NCBI GenBank assembly: GCA_022844165.1
Contig: JALHMH010000001.1
Span: 1 to 64,000 of the forward strand
Source: Lysobacterales bacterium
Lineage (GTDB): Bacteria > Pseudomonadota > Gammaproteobacteria > Xanthomonadales > SZUA-5
DNA: 64,000 bases
Direction: 5' to 3'
The notes beneath the pieces were generated by a model, which was not told the origin of the DNA, made no database searches, and saw only the letters and a program-made list of their open reading frames with translations. Shown here one piece after another: positions 52,969 to 64,000 of the stretch. Position numbers and translations under genes: made by a program. Position 1 is the first letter of the stretch. Each line of letters opens with the position of its first letter.

Positions 52969-53720
52969 TCCTTGGCCAGAAAGTCGCCGTCGTACTGCCT
53001 GCATATAACGCGGCGCTCACGCTGGAGCGAACGTATCGCGCCCTGCCGCTCGATATCGTCGATCGCGTCATCCTGGTCGACGACGCGAGCCGCGATGACA
53101 CAGCGCGACTCGCCGAGCAGCTGGGATTGCAGACCATTGTGCATCCGCGCAATCGTGGTTACGGCGGCAATCAAAAAACCTGCTACGACGCGGCGCTGAA
53201 GAGTGGTGCCGATATCGTCGTCATGGTACATCCGGACTATCAATACGATCCGCGCCTTGTGCCAGCGATGGTGGGCATGATTGCCTCAGGGGTTTACGAT
53301 GTCGTGCTCGGTTCGCGCATTCTCGGCAAGGGTGCGCTCAGCGGCGGCATGCCGCTTTGGAAGTACATCGCTAATCGAGGCCTGACGCTGATCGAAAATT
53401 TGGCGCTCGGCGCCAAACTCAGCGAATACCACACCGGCTACCGGGCGTATCACCGTCGTGTACTGGAGACGTTGGCGCTGGAGCAAAACTCAGACGATTT
53501 CGTGTTCGACAATGAGTTTCTGGCGCAGGCGATTCTCGGTGGCTTTCGTATGGGCGAAATCTCATGCCCGACACGGTACTTCGAGGAAGCCAGCTCGATT
53601 AATTTTCAGCGCTCTGTGCGCTATGGTTTTGGCGTGCTGCGCGTTTCGCTCGAAGGGTTGCTGCACCGGACCGGGCTGAAAAAGCACCTGCGCTACGAAC
53701 TGCGATCGCCCACCGTCTGA
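52965..53720 (+). CDS. GT2 polyprenol-phosphate glycosyltransferase-like
   Basis: VLPAYN, VDDASRD, NRGYGGNQK, HPDYQYDP. Confidence 0.92.
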   Translation: MILGQKVAVVLPAYNAALTLERTYRALPLDIVDRVILVDDASRDDTARLAEQLGLQTIVHPRNRGYGGNQKTCYDAALKSGADIVVMVHPDYQYDPRLVPAMVGMIASGVYDVVLGSRILGKGALSGGMPLWKYIANRGLTLIENLALGAKLSEYHTGYRAYHRRVLETLALEQNSDDFVFDNEFLAQAILGGFRMGEISCPTRYFEEASSINFQRSVRYGFGVLRVSLEGLLHRTGLKKHLRYELRSPTV

Positions 53721-54637
53721 GTCGAAACCGTACCGGCCGCATCTTTGCGCACCCAGGGCTCGGCAAACACCGCGGCCAGAATCAACGCTACGCCAAGGTA
53801 GAACTGCAAAGACAACTCGCGCTGTTCGGCGAGCAACGGAATGGCCAGCAGAATCGCATACACGGGTTCGAGATTGATCGCCAACTGCGCCTGATATGCG
53901 CTCAGTTGCCGCAGGGCGACCAGCGACAGCGCGAACGGCAGTAGTGTGCAGCCAAACGCCAACAGCAGCATCAACAGCGCATCGCGGCCATCAAGCACCG
54001 GAAACACCGGTCCGAGTGCCGGCCACGCGGCGCCGAGCAGCATCAGCAACACTGCCCCGGCGCCGAGTTCCAGCGCTGTCACCGAGAGTGCCGCGTGGTG
54101 GCCAATATGGCATTTGTTCAAAGCACCAAACAACGCCACCAGGAGTGCTGAGAGCGTGCCCACGGCAATCCCAGCGTACATACTGGGAGCCACGCCACCG
54201 ACCACCAGCGCCACGCCCGGCACAGCAATGACCGCCAGCCATAGCTCGCGCGGCTCAAAACGCTTGCCGGTGATCCACGGTTCGAGAACGGCCAGAAAGA
54301 TCGGTGTCAGCGCGATGCAGGTCACCGCAATCGACGCGTTCGCCAGTTTGATCGAGCCGTAGAACGTGAGCCAATGCAGTGCGACCAGCGCGCCAATTCC
54401 GGCGAAAACCCAGCGCTGTTTGACGGTCATCGCTGCGATTCCGAGCCAGACTCGTCTCATCAGCGCCAGTGCCGCCACCACCAGACACATCCGCCAGATC
54501 ACCAAGCCCAGGGCCGGCAAGGTAATCAGCTTGCCGAGAATGGCGGTAAATCCCCAGAGCACCACGCAGAAGTGTATCTGCAGCAGCGCCAGGCGCCGCG
54601 GGTGGAGTCCGGAAACGACGCGCTCAATCACAGGCAT
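53693..54637 (-). CDS. DMT/EamA transporter
   Basis: LWGFTAILGKLI, HWLTFYGSIK, NLEPVY; start could be TTG at 54673. Confidence 0.9.
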   Translation of the reverse strand: MPVIERVVSGLHPRRLALLQIHFCVVLWGFTAILGKLITLPALGLVIWRMCLVVAALALMRRVWLGIAAMTVKQRWVFAGIGALVALHWLTFYGSIKLANASIAVTCIALTPIFLAVLEPWITGKRFEPRELWLAVIAVPGVALVVGGVAPSMYAGIAVGTLSALLVALFGALNKCHIGHHAALSVTALELGAGAVLLMLLGAAWPALGPVFPVLDGRDALLMLLLAFGCTLLPFALSLVALRQLSAYQAQLAINLEPVYAILLAIPLLAEQRELSLQFYLGVALILAAVFAEPWVRKDAAGTVSTQTVGDRSS

Positions 54638-54669
54638 TCGTCCGAACGTATTGAGAATCGATGCCGGCG

Positions 54670-56499
54670 TCAATCAAGCGCGTATCGCTGCATGTAGTCG
54701 GTTCTCAAAGCGACCGACTGGTCCGCCTTCAACAGTACTGCGTTTTCGATCACCAGCGCATCCAGCTCGCACCCCATGAAACAGCGAAATGCGTCCTCAG
54801 GCGTGCATACGATGGGTTCGCCGCGCACGTTGAAGGAGGTATTCACCAGTATCGGACAACCTGTGAGCTGCTGAAACGCCGTCAACAGAGCGTGGTAGCG
54901 CGGGTGGGTTTGTGCGTCCACCGTCTGGATGCGCGCCGAATAATCGACATGCGTCACTGCGGGCACCGTTGAACGCGGCACATTCAACTTCTCGATGCCG
55001 AACAAACTCAGTTCCTCATCGGTCATCTCTCGCCGATGCTGCGCTTTGACGTCTGCAACCAGGAGCATATACGGGCTGTCGACGTCCATATCGAACCACT
55101 GCGCGACATCCTCTCGGCGCACGCTCGGCGCAAATGGTCGAAAGGACTCCCGATACTTCACTTTGAGATTGAGCTGCTTTTGCATCGTGGGCGAACGTGG
55201 ATCGGCCAGAATGCTGCGCGCCCCCAATGCGCGCGGCCCAAACTCCATCCGGCCGCAGCACCAGCCCACGGCCAGACCTTCGGCCAACCACGCGGCGGTT
55301 TGCGCGATCACAGCATCCTCGTTGAGCACGCGATAAACGGCGCCGGCCTGGTCCAGTGTGTCGGAGATCTCCGTCAGCCGAAACGATGGACCGAGGTAAC
55401 TGCCACGCATCGCATCGCCATTCGCCCGGCGTGGTTGCGAAAGCGCGATGTGATGCGCTGCCAGGGCCGCGCCCAGAGCACCGCCGGCGTCGCCAGCCGC
55501 TGGCTGGATGTAAAGCTCGTCGAAAACCCCGGCGCGCAGCAGCTTGCCATTCGCAACGCAGTTCAGAGCGACGCCGCCAGCCAGACAGAGCCGCCGCATG
55601 CCGGTGCTGCGGCGCGCAAACTGCGCCAGTTTCAATACGGCCTCCTCCGTCACGGACTGGATCGACGCGGCCAGATCCATCTCGCGCTGCGTCAACGGCG
55701 ATTCGGGCGAGCGCGGCGGACCACCGAACAGCGCGTGGAAACGCGCGTTGGTCATCGTCAGGCCAGTGCAGTAGTTGAAGTACTTCAAGTCCAGCGCAAA
55801 GCTGCCGTCGTCGCGCAGATCGATCAAATGACTTTTGATCAAGTCCGCGAATCTGGGTTCGCCGTACGGCGCCAAACCCATGATTTTGTACTCGCCAGAA
55901 TTGACCCTGAATCCGGTGTAGTAGGTGAAAGCCGAATACAGCAAGCCGATCGAATGCGGGAACTGAATTTCGCGCTGGACCTTCAATTGGTGACCGCGGC
56001 CAATCGCCAATGATGTGGTCGTCCATTCGCCGACGCCGTCCATGGTCAACACCGCAGCCGCATCGAAGGGCGACGGGAAAAACGCACTCGCAGCGTGGCT
56101 CAAATGGTGCTCGGAGAACATCAGCTTCTGCGCGTAATCGACATCGTTGCCGAAGACACACAGCGCCTCGCAGATCTGGCGTTTCTGGAACAGTTTGTCC
56201 TTCAGCCAAACCGGCAAGGCGGCAGCGAAACTTCTGAAGCCACGCGGGGCAAACGCCAGATAGGTTTCGAGCAGGCGTTCGAACTTCAAGAACGGTTTGT
56301 CGTAAAACGCGATGCCATCCAGCGTAGCGATATCGACACCGCCCTCGCTCAGGCAGTATCCGATGGCATGCTGCGGAAAGGACGGATCGTGCTTGATGCG
56401 CGTGAAGCGCTCTTCCTGCGCCGCGGCGACGATTTGCCCATCGACCAGCAATGCCGCCGCTGCGTCGTGGTAGTACGCGGAAATGCCGAGTATGCGCAT
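54670..56499 (-). CDS. CmcH/NodU/SxtI-family O-carbamoyltransferase
   Basis: ISAYYHDAAA, EERFTRIKH, HHLSHA, DGVGE, GGVALN, EFGPRALG, NTSFNVRGEP. Confidence 0.95.
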   Translation of the reverse strand: MRILGISAYYHDAAAALLVDGQIVAAAQEERFTRIKHDPSFPQHAIGYCLSEGGVDIATLDGIAFYDKPFLKFERLLETYLAFAPRGFRSFAAALPVWLKDKLFQKRQICEALCVFGNDVDYAQKLMFSEHHLSHAASAFFPSPFDAAAVLTMDGVGEWTTTSLAIGRGHQLKVQREIQFPHSIGLLYSAFTYYTGFRVNSGEYKIMGLAPYGEPRFADLIKSHLIDLRDDGSFALDLKYFNYCTGLTMTNARFHALFGGPPRSPESPLTQREMDLAASIQSVTEEAVLKLAQFARRSTGMRRLCLAGGVALNCVANGKLLRAGVFDELYIQPAAGDAGGALGAALAAHHIALSQPRRANGDAMRGSYLGPSFRLTEISDTLDQAGAVYRVLNEDAVIAQTAAWLAEGLAVGWCCGRMEFGPRALGARSILADPRSPTMQKQLNLKVKYRESFRPFAPSVRREDVAQWFDMDVDSPYMLLVADVKAQHRREMTDEELSLFGIEKLNVPRSTVPAVTHVDYSARIQTVDAQTHPRYHALLTAFQQLTGCPILVNTSFNVRGEPIVCTPEDAFRCFMGCELDALVIENAVLLKADQSVALRTDYMQRYALD

Positions 56500-56648
56500 C
56501 AGAACAAGGTGTAGATGAAGGGCGCCAGCACGGAGCCTTTGGCGATCAGCAAAATGCCGCCGATCAGTACCATCAGGATCACGATCGGCATCAACCAGAG
56601 CTTCTTACGCGCCTTGAAAAATTCGTAGAGTTCTTTGAGGAACGACAT
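56499..56648 (-). CDS. DUF5989/SxtK-like small membrane protein (not in ORF track)
   Basis: MSFLKELYEFFKARKKLWLMPIVILMVLIGGILLIAKGSVLAPFIYTLF. Confidence 0.9.
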   Translation of the reverse strand: MSFLKELYEFFKARKKLWLMPIVILMVLIGGILLIAKGSVLAPFIYTLF

Positions 56649-56653
56649 GGCGG

Positions 56654-57046
56654 TCAATACTGCCGACGAAAGGAATCAGATTCTGGCCCAGGCGGGGTGC
56701 GCTCGATCCAGTAGCTGGACGCACCGCGCTTCAGGCGCAGAGCATCCCGCCCGAAAGCGCGGGTTACCATGGCCACCGGCGTGATGAGCAGGAAGAACAT
56801 GGCGCCGAGCACGATCGGGCTGATGATGCGGCCGAGTAGTAGTCCGAATGCCATCCATGCGCGATTGAACGGTGCGAGACGCGTCGGGCGAAACCAGGCG
56901 AGCAGCGCGGTGGTCGTCGCCAGGGCAATCGCAATCGTCAACAGCAGCGCATGCGATCGCCACGCCGCCCACGCCGCGACCAGGGAAAAAACAACGACAA
57001 ACAAAGCGCCAAAACGGCGGTTGGTTGGCAGTGGCGACGATTGCAT
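56654..57046 (-). CDS. SxtJ-family membrane protein
   Basis: RRFG, PFNRAWMAFG, GRDALRL, SYWIER. Confidence 0.88.
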   Translation of the reverse strand: MQSSPLPTNRRFGALFVVVFSLVAAWAAWRSHALLLTIAIALATTTALLAWFRPTRLAPFNRAWMAFGLLLGRIISPIVLGAMFFLLITPVAMVTRAFGRDALRLKRGASSYWIERTPPGPESDSFRRQY

Positions 57047-57234
57047 CCTGCGGATGGGTGAGCCTTGGGGTTGCGAAGGTTAGCAGCTTGACGAGGCGAT
57101 AAATGGGGCGAGCGTGCGCCAAGCTAAACCGCTGCCAACAGACCTGGCCAGATTCAGATTCAAGTTATCGATGCGGGCCTACGCTGTGCCTCGAACCCGC
57201 GCATGGTGCGCGGCGCACTTGGAGTGCATGAGCT

Positions 57235-57861
57235 ATGGCTCGTATGTGGTTGGGTATGACGCTGCTGGCGCTGACGACGAATGTATTCGCGCAGGATTAC
57301 TACGACGACAACTACTACGCCGAGGAAGATGCCAGGTATCACGATATCGGTGATCGCGGCTACGGGAATGCTGATTATCGAGGCGCCGGCGATGGCTACG
57401 ACTTCGCTCGTGTCGTCGATGCACGACCAGTTTACGAAAACGTACCGGTGGCTGAGCCGCGTCGGCAGTGTTGGAATGAGCCGGTGACCTATGTCAGCGG
57501 TCCGCGCTATCGGCACCGCAGCAATACACCGGAAGTTGTCGGCGGCATCATCGGTGGTTTGGTCGGCAACCAGTTCGGGCGTGGCGATGGCCGCACCGCT
57601 GCTACGCTGGCAGGCGTGGTTCTCGGGGCGTCGATCGGTCGTGATGCCGAGCGCCAGAATCGTTACTACGGCGGTCCGCGCTACGAGCGCACAGTCCACG
57701 AACGTCGTTGCGATGTCGTCGAGCGTTATCGCGAGGAGCGACGGCTCAGCGGCTATGATGTCACCTACGATTACAACGGCACCATCGGCCAGGTGTTCAC
57801 CGATCGCCATCCTGGAACCGAAATTCGCGTTCGGATCAGCGTCGAACCGGCAGACTATTGA
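57235..57861 (+). CDS. Glycine-zipper 2TM secreted protein
   Basis: GGIIGGLVGNQFGRGDGRTAAT, GYDVTYDYNG. Confidence 0.9.
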   Translation: MARMWLGMTLLALTTNVFAQDYYDDNYYAEEDARYHDIGDRGYGNADYRGAGDGYDFARVVDARPVYENVPVAEPRRQCWNEPVTYVSGPRYRHRSNTPEVVGGIIGGLVGNQFGRGDGRTAATLAGVVLGASIGRDAERQNRYYGGPRYERTVHERRCDVVERYREERRLSGYDVTYDYNGTIGQVFTDRHPGTEIRVRISVEPADY

Positions 57862-57867
57862 CTCGTT

Positions 57868-57896
57868 GGCGTCCCTCCGTCTGGCGGAGGGACGCC
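57868..57896. terminator. Strong hairpin between convergent genes
   Basis: GGCGTCCCTCCG-TCTGG-CGGAGGGACGCC. Confidence 0.6.
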
Positions 57897-57934
57897 GGCC
57901 GCACCTGACCGGATCACCATCCGGCAGATTCAAG

Positions 57935-58669
57935 CTACTCAGAAAGCCGTGGCCGGAAACTGTATGGCGGCCACGGACCTGAGCAGCTCAAAAATATCCC
58001 CTCGGCGGCCAGCGTCTCGCGAGCGGCATCGACATCTTGCTGAAACGCATGCTCACGCGCCCTATCGATCAGCAGAGCGATATTCAACAGCGGCTGAGCC
58101 TGCTGACCTGGAACAACCGCCTGGCGACGAACTTCGGTGCGCGCACGCGCCTGCGAGAAAAGCGGCGCCAGCAACTCGTCGATTCTCGTGCGGGCGGCTT
58201 CCTGGCGAATCCGGCGCCGTTCCGGCGCGGACTGCTTAGCTTTCAACCACGCAAGACCGCTCATTCCCGATGCCGGGACTTCAGTGCCTTCTTCGCCGTC
58301 GGCGAGTATCGCCTTGATGCCCCACTCGGCAGCGCCGGCGACGTTTGCGAAGTACCGCTCCAACTCATCATGGTGTGCGCTGGCCGCGCATAGCAACTCG
58401 TCGGCCGCAGGCACGATGAGTCCAAATTGAAGCGGATACGCAGCCACCGTCTGACATATCTCCGTCACTGCGCTGTGCTGTCTGGCCAGTGCCCACGACA
58501 GCCATTTCGCGTCCTGCTGCGTGATATCAGAGTAGCGCTCCACGTCTGTCGCTTCGAGCGCTAAACAAAGAAGCGTCCAAGGTCCTTCAGTTGCCACCAC
58601 TTCCAGGCCCTCAACAGCGGGAAGCTCCGGTGCAGAACCAGTGGCGACCAGCGCAATTGGGTTCAGCAT
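57935..58669 (-). CDS. GvpL/GvpF-family gas vesicle protein
   Basis: H..AV, PLQFG, AEWGIK, LNIALLI, terminal SGPWPPYSF motif. Confidence 0.85.
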   Translation of the reverse strand: MLNPIALVATGSAPELPAVEGLEVVATEGPWTLLCLALEATDVERYSDITQQDAKWLSWALARQHSAVTEICQTVAAYPLQFGLIVPAADELLCAASAHHDELERYFANVAGAAEWGIKAILADGEEGTEVPASGMSGLAWLKAKQSAPERRRIRQEAARTRIDELLAPLFSQARARTEVRRQAVVPGQQAQPLLNIALLIDRAREHAFQQDVDAARETLAAEGIFLSCSGPWPPYSFRPRLSE

Positions 58670-58784
58670 TGTGAATCCTATGACAAGACCAGACCGCGAC
58701 AATACGGCAGCTCAGCGCTGACATCACAACTACTACAACTAAGTGGGTAGTTCCCGGCGACAGATCGCAGGGAATGATAAGGAC

Positions 58785-60578
58785 ATGAAAAGGGCCTTCC
58801 CCACGTTCCAGGTCGATCAATCGCGACGCCGCAAGCGCATGCGGACGGTTCTGCGGGGCGGCCGCTTTAGTTGGAACACTGGACTCTTCCGCGGAGCGAC
58901 GGACTTGAACGAATTGCCAGCCGCGCTACTTGAATCGGACGGCGAGCTGCTTGCGGCAATTCTTGAAGCGCTGCCGACGATGCTGATGGTCTTCGATCGG
59001 ACTGGCAAGCTGCTGCGCGTCAATCGTTCCTTTCAGTCCATTGCGGGCTACTCGCCAGACGCCATCGAACATCTGCACTTTTCCAGTCTGTTCGCCGATT
59101 CCAGTGCGCAGTCGCAATGGCAAACGGCCCTGGCCTGCAAGAACTTGAATGCCATCGAGTGCAATGAATACTTGACCAACCGCGCCGGGCGGCGGGTGCC
59201 GCTGGAACTGGCATTGGTGCGAGTGGGCGAGGCGGCCGATTTACGTATCGTGGTCGGCGCCATTGACTTGCGCAGTCAGCGCACGACCGAACGCCATCTG
59301 ATCCGACAGGCCTACTTTGATGCGTTGACGCGATTGCCCAATCGTACGGGTTTCAAACACCAGCTGGCGTTGCGCATTGCCGGCAGTTTTCAGCGCGACG
59401 AGGACTCTCTCGCTGTTGCCGTAGTCGATGTTGCACGCTTTCGCGTCATCAACGATGCGATCGGTCATGACGGTGGCGATGCATTGTTGCAGAGCCTCGC
59501 CAGCCGACTCCAGTCCAACCTCCAGGATGTGGTGATCGGGCATTTGAGTGCCGGCGAATTTGCTGTGATGTTGACCGATGTGCGCAACGAGCGCGACGCG
59601 CTGCGTGTCGGCCAGCGAATCCTTGGATTGTTTCGGGAGGCATTCCTGGTGCGCGGCCAACGCATCGTGCTCAACGCACGCGTTGGTGTGGCGCTGGCCG
59701 ACGCCAGGTCGGACCCCGCGACCGTGATGCGCGATGCCGATTCTGCACTTTTCGAGGCCAAGGAATCCGCTCAGGGTGTGCGTGTCTTCGACCGGTCGAT
59801 GCGCCTCGCCAGCGAAGCACGCCTGCGTCTGGATATCGAACTCCGCGCAGCCGTCGCGCGCGATGAATTTCGCCTGGTGCTGCAGCCGATCGTCCGTGTG
59901 CAGGACGGCACATTGGTCGGGCACGAAGCCCTGGTTCGCTGGGCACATCCAACTGCCGGCGAGCTGCTTCCCGCGCAATTCATCGCGCATGCTGAGCGCT
60001 CCGGGGTTATCTCCGCCATCGACGCCTGGTCGCTGCGAGCTACTCTGGAGTGGCTGGAAGACACGCGAACGGGTCTGTCCTGTAACGTCAATACGTCGGC
60101 GCTGTCGTTGTTGGATCAGGTGTGGTTAAACGATGCCGTACGCCTTCTCGAAGAACACAGCGAAGCGGCAAAACGACTACGCATCGAGATCACCGAAACC
60201 GCGCTGCTTGGCGATGCCCAGATCACTGCTGCGGCGCTGGAGCGATTGATCGGTGCTGGCGCGCAAATCGTCCTCGACGATTTTGGGACTGGCTACTCCT
60301 CGCTCGTGCATCTGCAGAGTTTTCCGATCTCCGGCATCAAGGTCGATCGTTCGTTTCTTGCGCGCCTGGATTCCGATCGGCGGGACCAGACGATTGTTGC
60401 CGCGCTCATCGGTCTGGCAAGCGAACTGGGTCTGACGGTCACCGCCGAAGGCGTCGAGACTGAAACGCAACGTGCTTGTCTGATCGAGCACGGGTGCGAG
60501 TTTGCGCAGGGATATTTATTCGGTCGACCCGCGCCCGCGGCCGCGACCTTGCAGCACTCTCTTGGAGCAATCAAATGA
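58785..60578 (+). CDS. PAS-GGDEF(degenerate)-EAL c-di-GMP protein
   Basis: PAS (VNRSFQSIAGYS), DALTRLPNR, SAGEF in place of GGDEF, EALVRW, DDFGTGYSS, KVDRSF, EGVE, QGY; RBS AAGGA. Confidence 0.93.
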   Translation: MKRAFPTFQVDQSRRRKRMRTVLRGGRFSWNTGLFRGATDLNELPAALLESDGELLAAILEALPTMLMVFDRTGKLLRVNRSFQSIAGYSPDAIEHLHFSSLFADSSAQSQWQTALACKNLNAIECNEYLTNRAGRRVPLELALVRVGEAADLRIVVGAIDLRSQRTTERHLIRQAYFDALTRLPNRTGFKHQLALRIAGSFQRDEDSLAVAVVDVARFRVINDAIGHDGGDALLQSLASRLQSNLQDVVIGHLSAGEFAVMLTDVRNERDALRVGQRILGLFREAFLVRGQRIVLNARVGVALADARSDPATVMRDADSALFEAKESAQGVRVFDRSMRLASEARLRLDIELRAAVARDEFRLVLQPIVRVQDGTLVGHEALVRWAHPTAGELLPAQFIAHAERSGVISAIDAWSLRATLEWLEDTRTGLSCNVNTSALSLLDQVWLNDAVRLLEEHSEAAKRLRIEITETALLGDAQITAAALERLIGAGAQIVLDDFGTGYSSLVHLQSFPISGIKVDRSFLARLDSDRRDQTIVAALIGLASELGLTVTAEGVETETQRACLIEHGCEFAQGYLFGRPAPAAATLQHSLGAIK

Positions 60579-62731
60579 TGGATGGCAGCGACGCCTTGAA
60601 TGATGCGGTCGATTCGTTCGCGCGTGCGAAAGGGCTATTCAGTCCTGCGGCGATGGGCTACTACCAGGGCGCTTTGCAGGCGCGCCAACACCTGGCCAGT
60701 GCGGCAATCATTTTCGACCGGGCTCAGGCGATCGCACGCGATGCGTGCGAGCTGGCCCGACCGTCGTTCGAACGCTCGGGTCTCATGGTGCATGCCGATG
60801 CTCTGGCGAGCGCCGAGCGCGACCTGTGCATGTTTGCTCAGGTGTGCGCGCGCGCATTGACGGGTGCGGATCGCGATCTGGAAAAAGGATACCTGAGGCA
60901 AGTGGCGACAGCCTCCAGCCTCGGTATGGACTTTCACGACTCCAGCCCATTGTTGCTGGGATTCGCCTGGTGCGCGGCTGCCAATCACTTGCAAGGACAA
61001 GCGCTGTGGTGCTTTCGCGCGGCCTGCGAACGGGCACAGTCCGCGTTGCGTAACGCTGCCAGCGGAGCGGCACTCAGCGCAGCGGCAGGCGACATTGGCG
61101 CTGGCGCTTACCCGATGTTGTCATCGGCTCACCCGGAACTGGATCAGATTTACGGCGCTGTGACAGCGGCAAAGTGTCCGCGCGATATGAGCATGATGCT
61201 CGGCACAGCAGCGCACGAATGGCTGGCCGAAGGGCGGCAAACGCCGTTAACCCAATGGATCAGCTGGCTCGTCGCCGCGATCGGGCCGCACGTTGCGCGC
61301 TACAGCGGCGATGTCTGGGGCAGCGTTTTTGCCAGCCTCGCGGCCGCCTCGTTGAGCCGGGTGCCGACGCAACAGTTGCCTGGGTGCGCCGCACCCCTTT
61401 TGGAGATTTCGCTTCACGGACATGCGCTGCGGCGCGCGGTGCATGGTTTGTTGCGTGCCGAAGATGCCGGGCATTTGAGCGCGCGGCGCAATAGCGAATC
61501 GGTAGCGGCTGCCCCCCACCATCAGCAGCGGGTCGCGCGGTTGTTTGCTGCACTCGCTTGCGCCAGCGTTGTGGGCGACCATGCCTATGCCGAGAAAGCG
61601 GTAGCAGACTTGCTCAACGAAGTCCGAACCTCGTCCAGTGAGCCATGTCTGCTCGGCCTTGCGTCGGCAGGCAGCGAAGCGATGGGTGTTGCCTACACGC
61701 CATTCGTCGCGCAGGCAATCGATGCTGGAGTCGATTCGGCGCGTGCGTTCGCCTTGCTACAGGGCGAGTGGCGCCACTTGCCAGACATCGCCAAAGGCGT
61801 CGTAGACCAGCTGAGTTTACCAACGGGTATGTTGCCGTGGCTCACCGGCGTTCTGGCGCTGCTGCTGGAACTGGCGACCAGCCGTTCTGCGCCGCGAGCC
61901 GAGCTTGCTCTGGGCGACCGGCTTCTGGCGGATTTCCTGGGGCTTTCGGGCAGCACGCCGGCCATTGAGGCGCAAGCCTTGCGTGCGCTGGCCGCTCGAG
62001 TACGCGAACATCCGGCCTCTGCCGTGGCGCGCCTAAGCACCTTGTTAAGCTCGCTGGGCGCAATGACCGACCGTTGGGAAGTGGTCTTTGTGATGCGCGC
62101 GGCAAGCAATCGCGGCGATGCCAGCGAATCCTGGACCGGGGCACTGTCCGCGCGCCTGGCCGTCGTATTGATCAATAACGCAAGCGAAAATTCCATTGCA
62201 GACACCGTGCATTGGTTGGCGACGGCATGGGTACCCCACGTGCGCTTCGCCCTGCCCGAACAATCGCCAGAGGTGCTGGCCGCGCCGGCGATTGCAGAGC
62301 TTCAGGCGCAACTGCCCATAGAGCAGCACGGTCGAATTGCGCAGCTCGCCGAGGGCATCGCCGATGCGGCGACCGCCCATGCGATGCTGGCAAACGCCGA
62401 TGCCTGGTGTGCTCAAGCGGTTGCGGAGATGCGAACGCGACCGAGCTTTGCGTCAGTGCGTGGGATTGAGACCAGGTGCATCCGCGATCTGACCATTTTG
62501 CTCAAGTCGATCGCTTGTTTCCTGGGCTCAGGACTTGGCGATGTTCCTATACGAGTTCGCGCATTTGCAGCGGCGCACTTGTTGCCGTTCCTACAAGAAG
62601 AAACGCGCAACTTCGGCACTGAACTGGTTGCAGTGTTGCAGGCGCAGATGGCACAACTGAGCGGCACGTCGCGCAACCGGGTCGCAGCGCTCCTGGCCTC
62701 AGTTTATCAACACGACGGTGCCCCGCAATGA
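60575..62731 (+). CDS. 718-aa helical protein with tandem phycobiliprotein/globin-like repeats
   Basis: GGAG RBS, ATGA overlap with upstream gene; AERDL (80-84), KCPRDM (200-205), RCIRDL (634-639) in phycobiliprotein helix-E-like contexts. The ORF is solid; the family call is by eye. Confidence 0.65.
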   Translation: MMDGSDALNDAVDSFARAKGLFSPAAMGYYQGALQARQHLASAAIIFDRAQAIARDACELARPSFERSGLMVHADALASAERDLCMFAQVCARALTGADRDLEKGYLRQVATASSLGMDFHDSSPLLLGFAWCAAANHLQGQALWCFRAACERAQSALRNAASGAALSAAAGDIGAGAYPMLSSAHPELDQIYGAVTAAKCPRDMSMMLGTAAHEWLAEGRQTPLTQWISWLVAAIGPHVARYSGDVWGSVFASLAAASLSRVPTQQLPGCAAPLLEISLHGHALRRAVHGLLRAEDAGHLSARRNSESVAAAPHHQQRVARLFAALACASVVGDHAYAEKAVADLLNEVRTSSSEPCLLGLASAGSEAMGVAYTPFVAQAIDAGVDSARAFALLQGEWRHLPDIAKGVVDQLSLPTGMLPWLTGVLALLLELATSRSAPRAELALGDRLLADFLGLSGSTPAIEAQALRALAARVREHPASAVARLSTLLSSLGAMTDRWEVVFVMRAASNRGDASESWTGALSARLAVVLINNASENSIADTVHWLATAWVPHVRFALPEQSPEVLAAPAIAELQAQLPIEQHGRIAQLAEGIADAATAHAMLANADAWCAQAVAEMRTRPSFASVRGIETRCIRDLTILLKSIACFLGSGLGDVPIRVRAFAAAHLLPFLQEETRNFGTELVAVLQAQMAQLSGTSRNRVAALLASVYQHDGAPQ

Positions 62732-64000
62732 GCGTGCCGAGTTCACCTCTTCGCGGTTGTTTCGCCTCTAGTAGCGCGGCTGGACTCAGCGCACGCCTGC
62801 GCGCCGTGCATTCTGTGGCCATCGCCCGGGAACTGAGCGTGCTCAGCGCCTCGTTGCGCAATGGCAACAGCGAGGAGTTGGGCGATCTGACCGAACTTGC
62901 CGACGGCGATGCGTTGGCCGAAGTTCTGGATGAGCTTGCCAGGCGCCTGACCACGCCTGAGCAGATCGCTGCGCAACCGATGCCGGCCTGGGTCAGCATC
63001 GCGCAGCGTTCGCGGGACTATGTCGATATCGACGATTTGTCGCCGCTGGTGGAGCGCATTGTGGCGCGTATCGCGCGCCGCGTCGCACCCGGAACCCGTA
63101 GCTTCGTTGAACTCTATGTTTGGGAAGCGCAGGCAGCATTCGAGGTGTTTCGACAACGCTTTCAGATCGCGCAGGATATCGATGCCATCGTTGCCGAAGT
63201 GTTTGCCGGGCTGGCCCATGCAATGCGCCTCCTCGATGAAGACGCGAGCCAGGTGGATCTGGAGGAGTTGCAAAGCAGCTTCGCGCAAGTCTTGCGCGAG
63301 TGGACGAAGCTGTTGAGCGACATGGGCGCAGTGGTCGATCTGGAACTGATCAGACTCTTCGTCAACGAACTTGCGGTTCGCTACCGCTTGAGCCCGCGGA
63401 TATGGTCGTTGCTGATTTTGCGCCTCGATCGCGCGTTTTCGGTGCGCGCCGATAACCGCCTCGAACACGTCTTCGGCGATGCGATCGAGGGCTTGCTCGG
63501 TGCTACGCAACGGTTCGATTTCTTGCGCGATCTGCGCAGCGACGGGTATGCCTATTTGCCACCGGACGCCGAGTTGTGGGGCGATCTGGTCAGCGTGATG
63601 ATTGTCGTTTCGCTACGTCCGGGCTCGCGCCTGGAAGCGCGTTCGGCGCGGGCTTTGAATTTGGCGGCCGTCAGCGATCTGGTCGGCGGGCGTTGGGACG
63701 ATTTCGAGCAAGCCGTTCGCCTCGGCTCGGCCGGCCTGCGCAATCGCTGGGAGCGCAATTTCCTGGACTTGTACACGGCGGGGTCAGCGCGCCTGCTGAC
63801 GGTCGCCAAAGTTGCCAGTGAGCTGGCAGCGCAGGACTTGAGTGCAGTCCACGATCCGTCTGTCGAAACGTTGCTGCTGAAGGCGCGCGCAGCGATCGTA
63901 CTGGGCGCTGATGTGCCTGCTCAGCGCAGTCTGTTTCGTGTTGGCCTTTCGCAGGTGATCGAATTGCCCAATCGCTCGCAGTTGCGCGTACTCGCGCAGC
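62728..64000 (+). CDS. Large helical hypothetical protein, partial (not in ORF track)
   Basis: ATGA overlap with previous stop; 424 codons without a stop to the window end (MSVPSSPLRGCF...RVLAQ). Confidence 0.8.
   Translation, partial: MSVPSSPLRGCFASSSAAGLSARLRAVHSVAIARELSVLSASLRNGNSEELGDLTELADGDALAEVLDELARRLTTPEQIAAQPMPAWVSIAQRSRDYVDIDDLSPLVERIVARIARRVAPGTRSFVELYVWEAQAAFEVFRQRFQIAQDIDAIVAEVFAGLAHAMRLLDEDASQVDLEELQSSFAQVLREWTKLLSDMGAVVDLELIRLFVNELAVRYRLSPRIWSLLILRLDRAFSVRADNRLEHVFGDAIEGLLGATQRFDFLRDLRSDGYAYLPPDAELWGDLVSVMIVVSLRPGSRLEARSARALNLAAVSDLVGGRWDDFEQAVRLGSAGLRNRWERNFLDLYTAGSARLLTVAKVASELAAQDLSAVHDPSVETLLLKARAAIVLGADVPAQRSLFRVGLSQVIELPNRSQLRVLAQ

Follow-up and report, generated by a model that had tools for sequence, protein, structure and literature searches.

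The window studied here, a stretch of 64,000 nucleotides from a Lysobacterales bacterium (C1:1-64000, C1 being a contig of the 4.68-Mb genome G000), ends in an arrangement that poses a question. The gas-vesicle gene gvpL, on the minus strand, stands back to back with plus-strand genes for an EAL-domain protein, a 718-residue protein (p718) and the beginning of a 1282-residue protein (p1282). What do gas vesicles, the turnover of cyclic di-GMP (c-di-GMP) and two such large proteins have to do with one another? The plus-strand genes proved to be the head of an operon that also encodes a bilin reductase and that is enclosed by gas-vesicle (gvp) genes on an accessory island. On balance we favor the explanation that a bilin-based light or redox sensing assembly has been co-selected with buoyancy and has c-di-GMP and protein phosphorylation as its outputs.

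The operon and its gas-vesicle island

Gene identities were assigned from Pfam and NCBIfam profile matches, judged against the family cut-offs. The minus-strand open reading frame (ORF) at 57935-58702 encodes a GvpL/GvpF protein (PF06386, 93.3 bits; cut-off 23.6), which scored 43 bits with the NCBIfam GvpL model, under its cut-off of 200. The probable start is ATG 58669, with AGGA ahead of it. It lies 115 bp from the first in-frame ATG of the plus-strand genes at 58785, so that the divergent gvpL/F-like gene and the gap of about 115 bp described in the original prediction were both recovered. Direct reading of the sequence confirmed that ATGA overlaps at 60575-60578 and 62728-62731 join three plus-strand genes. 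The operon that had been expected to continue past the window does so: it comprises 13 genes and 17,379 bp, from 58785 to C1:76163, and is translationally coupled, its junctions consisting of six ATGA overlaps, one 8-nucleotide overlap and, for the rest, gaps of 6-44 bp. The genes are arranged in the order EAL gene, p718, p1282, 2Fe-2S ferredoxin, V4R protein, coiled-coil protein, BBAG, second V4R-like protein, Ser/Thr kinase, 214-residue protein, phosphatase, bilin reductase and ferredoxin reductase. Because the same order recurs in two related genomes and six metagenome contigs, it reflects more than chance.

The product of the first operon gene matched the Pfam EAL (213.6 bits), GGDEF (103.2 bits) and PAS (28-29 bits) families. 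Its GGDEF signature is degenerate and reads SAGEF. EALVR, DDFGTG, EGVE and QGYLF, which we take to be the catalytic signature motifs of EAL domains, are all present. The best NCBIfam matches were c-di-GMP phosphodiesterases, all of them under the equivalog cut-offs. The protein is thus probably a phosphodiesterase only, with c-di-GMP as its substrate, in line with the activity first proposed for it.

Orthologs of gvpL are likewise divergent from the EAL gene in a genome of another genus of the same family (G018, 40% identity) and in the metagenome locus L023 (49% identity). When the intergenic regions were aligned, a block of 20 nucleotides was identical to that of L023 at 18 positions, and its 15-nucleotide core was found only in these two among the 38 loci compared. 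The block is a candidate operator. A repeat search of both divergent intergenic regions of the island (gvpL/EAL and heme oxygenase/gvpA) found no repeats, and a promoter and terminator scan gave no enrichment (promoter-like sites, 2 where 4.0 were expected; terminator-like sites, 13 where 17.7 were expected).

Convergent with the operon end lie genes for a hybrid histidine kinase of PAS2-GAF-PHY-PAS architecture, a LuxR-type response regulator and a heme oxygenase (PF01126, 43.3 bits). The heme oxygenase gene is 4 kb downstream of the operon on the opposite strand. Divergent from it runs a gvp series in the order gvpA, a gene for a 174-residue protein, gvpN, two small genes, gvpF, gvpJ, gvpK, a third GvpA/J paralog, an Hsp20-like gene and a CDC48-type AAA ATPase gene. 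In the whole genome PF00741 matched three times, PF06386 twice and PF05121 with 97 bits. The NCBIfam scores were 319.7 for GvpN (cut-off 266.8), 133.3 for GvpA (cut-off 100) and 699.6 for the CDC48-type ATPase (cut-off 802.65). The genome carries a full gvp cluster, from which gas-vesicle formation is predicted. All gene classes that the original prediction had proposed to seek beyond position 64000 were present, namely ferredoxin, V4R, heme oxygenase, bilin reductase and gvp genes, the latter represented by gvpA/N/F/J/K. The Hsp20-like and CDC48-type double-AAA ATPase genes (C1:85341-88071), which close the gvp cluster, are both kept in G018, in G011 (also of another genus of the family) and in G528, from another family of the order.

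The extent of the unit was deduced by comparison with G001, a genome of the same genus that is 99% complete. DNA homology between the two ends at window position 57861 and resumes at C1:88143, immediately after the CDC48-type gene. Thus, the unit spans gvpL to the CDC48-type gene and is an accessory island of about 30 kb (C1 about 57.9-88.1 kb). G001 gave no match to p718, GvpA or V4R. A simple insertion cannot be shown because the two flanks lie on different contigs in G001. The island has three parts: the gvp set at both ends, the 13-gene bilin operon, and the group formed by heme oxygenase, LuxR regulator and histidine kinase. The gvp genes enclose the operon, with gvpL at the left end and gvpA through the CDC48-type gene at the right. 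In an Rfam scan of the island no family was matched; thus, no c-di-GMP riboswitch was detected there.

Globin proteins and bilin synthesis

The family of p718 is rare: a set of 5.8 billion proteins yielded 8 clusters of it at 90% identity, and one of 1.84 billion yielded 11 representatives. The protein had been called biliprotein-like, and three lines of analysis agreed with that description. Among profiles, the Phycobilisome family PF00502 matched six of eight family members (best E 2e-5), though not the window's own copy, and one homolog bears a precomputed PF00502 label; NCBIfam gave no match for p718. A profile search of PDB sequences with p718 returned six matches at E up to 10, four of which were phycobiliproteins aligned at the chromophore motif (E 0.12-0.59, each individually weak). 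Among motifs, p718 contains three of the form xxRD, that is AERD at residues 80-83, CPRD at 201-204 and CIRD at 635-638. In an alignment of 14 sequences with identities down to 19%, Arg82, Arg203, Asp204, Arg637 and Asp638 were invariant, and the cysteine was kept in 11 sequences for CPRD and in 12 for CIRD. CXRD is described in PMC10151467 as the bilin attachment motif of phycobiliproteins.

The third line was structural. The AlphaFold (AF2) model of p718 (pLDDT 73, pTM 0.73), submitted as a whole to Foldseek, found no PDB match at E 0.001 or better, and fold matches were obtained instead from an exhaustive structural aligner. Residues 578-714 matched allophycocyanin (8or7_A, Z 12.7) and residues 26-159 phycoerythrin (1b8d_A, Z 11.8, root-mean-square deviation (rmsd) 2.5); further matches were the bilin domain of ApcE (4xxi_A, Z 12.1) and a photocobilin globin (Z 11.6). 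Residues 156-293 resembled ordinary globins (Z 8-9) and residues 290-408 an RsbR-type globin (Z 9.9). Since Z values below about 13 can occur among helical proteins by themselves, the fold evidence carries weight only when joined to the motifs and to the PF00502 matches. The three lines combined indicate that p718 is a tandem of biliprotein-like globin domains, at least three and probably four. A search of genome contigs with the p718 alignment gave 39 pattern matches, none of which was confirmed.

For p1282, no Pfam family was found at E 0.01 and NCBIfam gave no match; PF00502 weakly matched three of its six orthologs (best E 0.035). Only three PDB sequences were matched at E up to 10, all of them phycocyanin alpha chains aligned with residues 530-594 (E 0.15-1.4). 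The aligned motif is TRRD (591-594), in which Thr591, Arg593 and Asp594 are invariant among the six orthologs. An AF2 model of residues 1-720 (pLDDT 70) showed a globin fold at 530-677, with 8or7_A (Z 12.7), 8imk_G (Z 12.1, rmsd 2.2) and ApcE (Z 11.2, rmsd 2.2) as matches. The protein therefore has one biliprotein-like globin domain (about 530-677), which is encoded beyond the window; the first 424 residues, encoded within it, are helical and have no dominant fold match. Binding of bilins by p718 and p1282 would be in keeping with these features.

The p1282 profile also matched a giant ORF of 1,314-1,947 residues directly upstream of the ferredoxin gene in five of six distant loci (E 2e-57 to 4e-12); the sixth has a 1,357-residue ORF at the same position, unmatched by the profile. 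Further matches were obtained in G273 (E 6e-136) and G528 (E 5e-18). The G273 giant protein matched the C-terminal globin domain of the p718 profile as well (E 4e-9) and so ties the two families together. The idea that p718 is fused to p1282 in Opitutales proteins of 1,940 residues was rejected, since the p718 profile did not match them and their extra length is an internal p1282-like duplication. In these giants, from Opitutales metagenome-assembled genomes (L029:2919-8762 and L032:2927-8755; 1,942-1,947 residues), the duplicated region corresponds to about profile positions 730-1110.

The bilin reductase of the operon (PF05996, 61.8 bits; cut-off 31) has Synechocystis PcyA as its best solved relative (full-length, E 2.5e-12). 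Alignment to PcyA placed Glu85 at Asp105 and Ser68 at His88. Among nine cluster reductases, the Asp105 column holds Glu in eight, the His88 column holds Ser, Thr or Asn in all, and the Glu76 column is not conserved; those nearest to the island reductase are 28-46% identical to it. PMC13446030 gives as the pre-1 pattern Glu at PcyA Asp105, a Thr/Asn-type residue at His88 and no conserved Glu76, and reports a phytochromobilin-type product for another pre-1 enzyme assayed in vitro. By its residue pattern, then, the island reductase is of the pre-1 type. PF05996 was matched in only 1 of 399 other genomes of a class-wide sample, too few for a statistical treatment. The 2Fe-2S ferredoxin (Fer2, 43.3 bits) and the ferredoxin reductase (Pyr_redox_2) would form a dedicated electron supply for this enzyme.

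The five xxRD globin domains of the gene set are distributed as three in p718 and one each in p1282 and BBAG, and an attachment cysteine is present in only two of them, both in p718. The distribution of this cysteine in BBAG itself is patterned. It is present in 7 of 11 BBAG orthologs: alanine (KAPRD) takes its place in four of the five loci that also encode p718, and cysteine (KCxRD) is found in L023, the fifth, and in all six loci without p718, which are free of gvp genes. Covalent bilin attachment may thus have shifted from BBAG to p718. A complex prediction for p718 and BBAG scored 0.00 against a mark of 0.32.

As to the remaining operon products, the second V4R-like protein reached only E 0.052 in Pfam and was matched to V4R-A orthologs by blastp (E 1e-15 to 2e-17). 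The coiled-coil protein has 721 residues, the Ser/Thr kinase 646, and the phosphatase is dual-specificity-phosphatase-like. NCBIfam gave no match for the coiled-coil protein, BBAG, the second V4R-like protein, the 214-residue protein or the phosphatase. ESM Atlas leads (0.92) suggesting a BcsQ-like nature of the 214-residue protein shared few features with it and were treated as chance. Across loci in which p718 shows only 43-70% identity, the first V4R protein retains 80-94%, and in Opitutales and Comamonadaceae it still reaches 69-75%. Several of its cysteines are invariant, and it appears to be under unusually strong constraint.

Beyond the operon, the hybrid histidine kinase is called phytochrome-like rather than BphP because it has no N-terminal cysteine and two of its scores are under their cut-offs, narrowly for GAF (cut-off 22.4) and also for NCBIfam BphP (116 bits; cut-off 1040). 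In its kinase half it is similar to the NahK/ErcS family, and the LuxR regulator next to it is similar to ErdR. A rhodopsin search of the genome gave no match and is uninformative, as the control matched nowhere either.

Features of the locus and their coordinates (plain numbers, window positions; C1, positions on the contig)
Feature	Position	Strand	Basis
Left boundary of the accessory island	57862-57934		DNA homology to G001 stops at 57861
gvpL, second GvpF/L paralog, 244 residues from ATG 58669	57935-58669	minus	PF06386
Divergent intergenic region, 115 bp	58670-58784		Holds conserved block 58733-58752
PAS/degenerate GGDEF/EAL protein, 597 residues, first operon gene	58785-60578	plus	Pfam
p718, all-helical multi-globin biliprotein-like protein, 718 residues	60575-62731	plus	Motifs, PF00502 in relatives, fold matches
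p1282, first 424 codons inside the window; 1282 residues, ends at C1:66576	62728-64000	plus	ORF call
First V4R protein	C1:67091-67750	plus	V4R 62.8 bits
BBAG, stand-alone Phycobilisome-family globin	C1:69925-70524	plus	PF00502 39.8 bits (cut-off 22.2)
Phytochrome-like hybrid histidine kinase	C1:76209-79394	minus	PAS_2 61.4, PHY 34.1, GAF 22.2 bits

Immediately to the left of the island, a 257-residue minus-strand ORF (57160-57933) looks spurious; the plus-strand interval 57235-57861 is a gene conserved in G001 (79% DNA identity) and encodes a glycine-zipper (Rick_17kDa_Anti) protein. Farther left, and outside the island, the minus-strand block 53693-57046 encodes an EamA transporter, a carbamoyltransferase (351 and 243 bits) and a 130-residue SxtJ-family protein and is kept in G001.

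Linkage across genomes and possible functions

Conservation of the neighborhood, which had been suggested as a check, was found in G018, in G011 and in six metagenome contigs (L019-L024). The latter were retrieved with an alignment of eight p718 sequences and encode p718 proteins of 43-70% identity. G018 and G011 keep the order EAL gene, p718, p1282, ferredoxin, V4R, coiled coil, BBAG, (V4R), kinase, (214-residue protein), phosphatase, reductase and ferredoxin reductase, and the metagenome contigs keep it as far as they extend. The original prediction tied p718 to EAL and gvp genes, and this tie held: p718 directly follows the EAL gene in seven of seven assessable loci (two contigs start at p718 and were not judged), a gvp gene is near p718 in four of the five loci with enough upstream sequence, and the genome itself has its full gvp cluster. 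Moreover, p1282 directly follows p718 in eight of eight assessable loci.

The order was surveyed in a sample of 399 genomes. Within it, p718 occurred only in G000, G018 and G011, and multi-copy GvpA in these three and in G528. All four clear gvp clusters adjoin an EAL-headed bilin operon on the same contig, and they do so in three arrangements; the two gene sets thus co-occur and are co-inherited in the order. In G018, heme oxygenase (minus) is followed by gvpA through the CDC48-type gene (plus), gvpL (minus) and the EAL-headed operon (plus). In G011, heme oxygenase, regulator, kinase, gvp genes, CDC48-type gene, a 129-residue ORF and the operon are all on one strand. In G528, BBAG, V4R, ferredoxin, the p1282 homolog, the EAL gene and a LuxR regulator lie on one strand, divergent from gvpA through the CDC48-type gene; no p718 was found in that genome.

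A scan with a V4R alignment, restricted to one genome per species, returned eight loci. Two were contigs of G018 and G011, and the other six came from Wenzhouxiangella (two), Opitutales (two), Rubrivivax and Comamonadaceae. All six encode the ferredoxin, both V4R proteins, BBAG and the kinase; the reductase is clear in five and marginal in the sixth, and the 214-residue protein or the phosphatase is present in most. None of the six has p718. Given their presence in these distant loci, the kinase, the phosphatase, the 214-residue protein and the giant protein belong to the conserved content of pre-1 clusters in three phyla or classes.

These results suggest the following sequence of events. Heme oxygenase would provide biliverdin, and electrons from NAD(P)H would pass by way of the ferredoxin reductase and the 2Fe-2S ferredoxin to the pre-1 reductase, which would convert biliverdin to a phytochromobilin-type bilin. 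The bilin would be held by the xxRD globin domains of p718, p1282 and BBAG. The resulting pigment-protein assembly, together with the two V4R proteins and the coiled-coil protein, would report light or redox state. The signal might leave through the Ser/Thr kinase and phosphatase pair and also through the EAL phosphodiesterase, which would lower c-di-GMP and favor the planktonic state. If the system is co-regulated as well as co-inherited with the gas vesicles, buoyancy, and with it position in the water column, would track light or oxygen. The original prediction had a pigment-, light- or redox-sensing module control buoyancy or lifestyle through c-di-GMP, or form a pigment scaffold, and is partly supported: gene content and linkage make these roles plausible. 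More tentatively, and with appreciably less confidence, we consider that in a lineage of non-photosynthetic gammaproteobacteria the pre-PcyA/BBAG system may have grown into a multi-bilin assembly with five phycobiliprotein-type sites, carried mainly on giant poly-globin proteins and organized by the coiled coil, in which light or redox input sets both buoyancy and c-di-GMP.

Several observations weigh against a bilin-based sensor coupled to flotation. The window's own p718 has no Pfam match and is not recognized by PF00502 even at E 10, and when p718 was compared with an alignment of 11 BBAG sequences, the CPRD domain did align with the BBAG motif, but with a modest probability of 19% (E 0.0012). 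The fold Z values of 11-13 for p718 and p1282 fall inside the aligner's caution range. The stand-alone BBAG of the island reads APRD, with alanine in place of the attachment cysteine. Likewise, none of the six residues before IQPHG in the phytochrome-like kinase is cysteine, and its GAF motif departs from the usual one, the canonical phytochrome motifs (N-terminal Cys and GAF motif) being here those that we assume. In the contig L020 a histidine-kinase fragment, not gvpL, lies in the 1.3 kb of upstream sequence that the contig contains. No RNA sequencing run carrying the stretch was found among the runs searched, which yielded four DNA runs from one study. The genomes sharing the island are kin, and because of this relatedness the co-occurrence counts are not independent events. 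Finally, GvpA was found in none of seven genomes with pre-1 clusters of other lineages (0/5 and 0/2) by a search that finds three copies in G000. The core system can thus do without gas vesicles, and their coupling to it is lineage-specific.

The last point is also what one would see if the gvp genes and the bilin operon merely traveled together on a mobile or often-lost island and acted independently. The patchy distribution of the island agrees with this: neither the congener G001 nor most of the family has it, p718 and multi-copy GvpA each occurring in 2 of 24 other family genomes, with one further genome of the 24 (G013) giving a single weak GvpA match (27.5 bits) and containing no V4R. 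However, the two gene sets remain neighbors through three different rearrangements, which fall in two families of the order. In G000, G018 and L023 only a short intergenic region separates the divergent gvpL and EAL genes, and a multi-copy gvp cluster without the operon was not seen in the 399 genomes sampled. We regard travel without functional coupling as unlikely. A different objection starts from the amount of apoprotein, since five xxRD domains over three proteins plus a 721-residue coiled coil exceed what a sensor needs, and ApcE, the core-membrane linker, is among the best folds of both giants (Z 12.1 and 11.2). The products might then form a bulk pigment array, a photoprotective or light-absorbing scaffold in surface-floating cells, with kinase, phosphatase and EAL protein only regulating its production. 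Such an array would operate without photosynthesis: no reaction-centre gene was found in the genome, whereas a control genome was matched, so light harvesting for photosynthesis is unlikely. Yet the attachment cysteine is kept in only two of the five domains, and the operon is rich in signaling genes (PAS-EAL, kinase, phosphatase). In our judgment a pigment array is an improbable explanation.

The globins might, alternatively, bind heme or another ligand, in which case the module would sense O2, NO or redox and the reductase and heme oxygenase would serve the phytochrome-like kinase only. Heme-binding globin-coupled sensors are indeed nearly equal as folds (4uiq_A, Z 11.7; DosC 4zva_A, Z 11.3-11.7), and the NahK/ErcS-like kinase part would suit such a role. 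Against this, the conserved xxRD/CXRD motifs fall at the bilin site of phycobiliproteins in alignments, no family other than PF00502 recurs among p718 and p1282 members, BBAG-1 proteins bind bilins (PMC10151467), and the phytochrome-like protein, the sole client of the bilin in such a scheme, is without the usual chromophore cysteine. We give heme sensing little credence.

Should the multi-bilin assembly be borne out as the input that sets buoyancy, BBAG clusters would gain their first assigned physiological role, that of buoyancy control, and the giant proteins would be free-living kin of the type of scaffold that gave rise to phycobilisome components such as ApcE. Pre-PcyA/BBAG proteins are regarded as ancestral to phycobiliproteins and PcyA, on which cyanobacterial light harvesting is based, and the island offers that system a testable physiological setting, namely flotation and a c-di-GMP-controlled lifestyle in a heterotroph. 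It also supplies new conserved partners that may explain signaling or assembly, among them the giant globin proteins, the Ser/Thr kinase-phosphatase pair and the dedicated ferredoxin and ferredoxin reductase, and an apparent move of the covalent attachment cysteine from a small BBAG to a large multi-globin protein.

Comparison with known systems

Pre-PcyA/BBAG clusters have been reported by Rockwell, Martin and Lagarias in 2023 (PMC10151467) and in Protein Sci in 2026 (PMC13446030). In non-photosynthetic bacteria the pre-1 and pre-3 PcyA clusters encode two V4R proteins together with an Fe-S protein and either one or two phycobiliprotein-like globins (BBAGs), frequently also a heme oxygenase, and the function of BBAG was stated to be unknown (PMC10151467). 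The island operon shares with a pre-1 cluster the pre-1-pattern reductase, the 2Fe-2S protein, two V4R proteins, BBAG and, nearby on the island, heme oxygenase. It differs in being headed by the EAL gene and p718, in sitting inside a gas-vesicle island and in having a BBAG without the attachment cysteine. The giant protein of 1,300-1,950 residues, the Ser/Thr kinase, the 214-residue protein and the phosphatase are further conserved neighbors. A literature search for BBAG and bilin gave nothing relevant beyond these two reports. Their main texts, figures and supplements aside, do not contain the term "gas vesicle"; "kinase" occurs once in one main text and not in the other, and figures or supplements may tabulate these genes. 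"Tandem" and "multidomain" are absent from the main text of the BBAG paper searched for them, again apart from its figures and supplements. The core of the operon thus corresponds to the published pre-PcyA/BBAG cluster, and the gas-vesicle linkage, the EAL head gene and the multi-globin giants were not found in print within these texts.

With ApcE and the phycobiliproteins (PF00502) the giant proteins have in common the globin fold, the phycobiliprotein-type helices, the CXRD motif and the placement of a biliprotein-like domain inside a very large protein; the similarity in sequence is marginal. Unlike ApcE, they occur in a host without a photosynthetic reaction centre, linker (REP) domains were not detected in them, and the globins of p718 are in tandem.

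A published precedent for bilin synthesis beside gvp genes is Bradyrhizobium sp. ORS278, in which the bacteriophytochrome BRADO1262 is described as lying on an acquired island with genes for phycocyanobilin and gas-vesicle synthesis (PMC3899966). As far as that description goes, both cases bring heme oxygenase, bilin reductase, a phytochrome-type kinase and gvp genes together on a proteobacterial accessory island. Bradyrhizobium ORS278 has a true PcyA of the AX clade and a phycocyanobilin-binding phytochrome, whereas the island studied here has a pre-1 reductase and a phytochrome-like protein without the usual cysteine, and adds BBAG, V4R and Fe-S proteins and the giant globin proteins.

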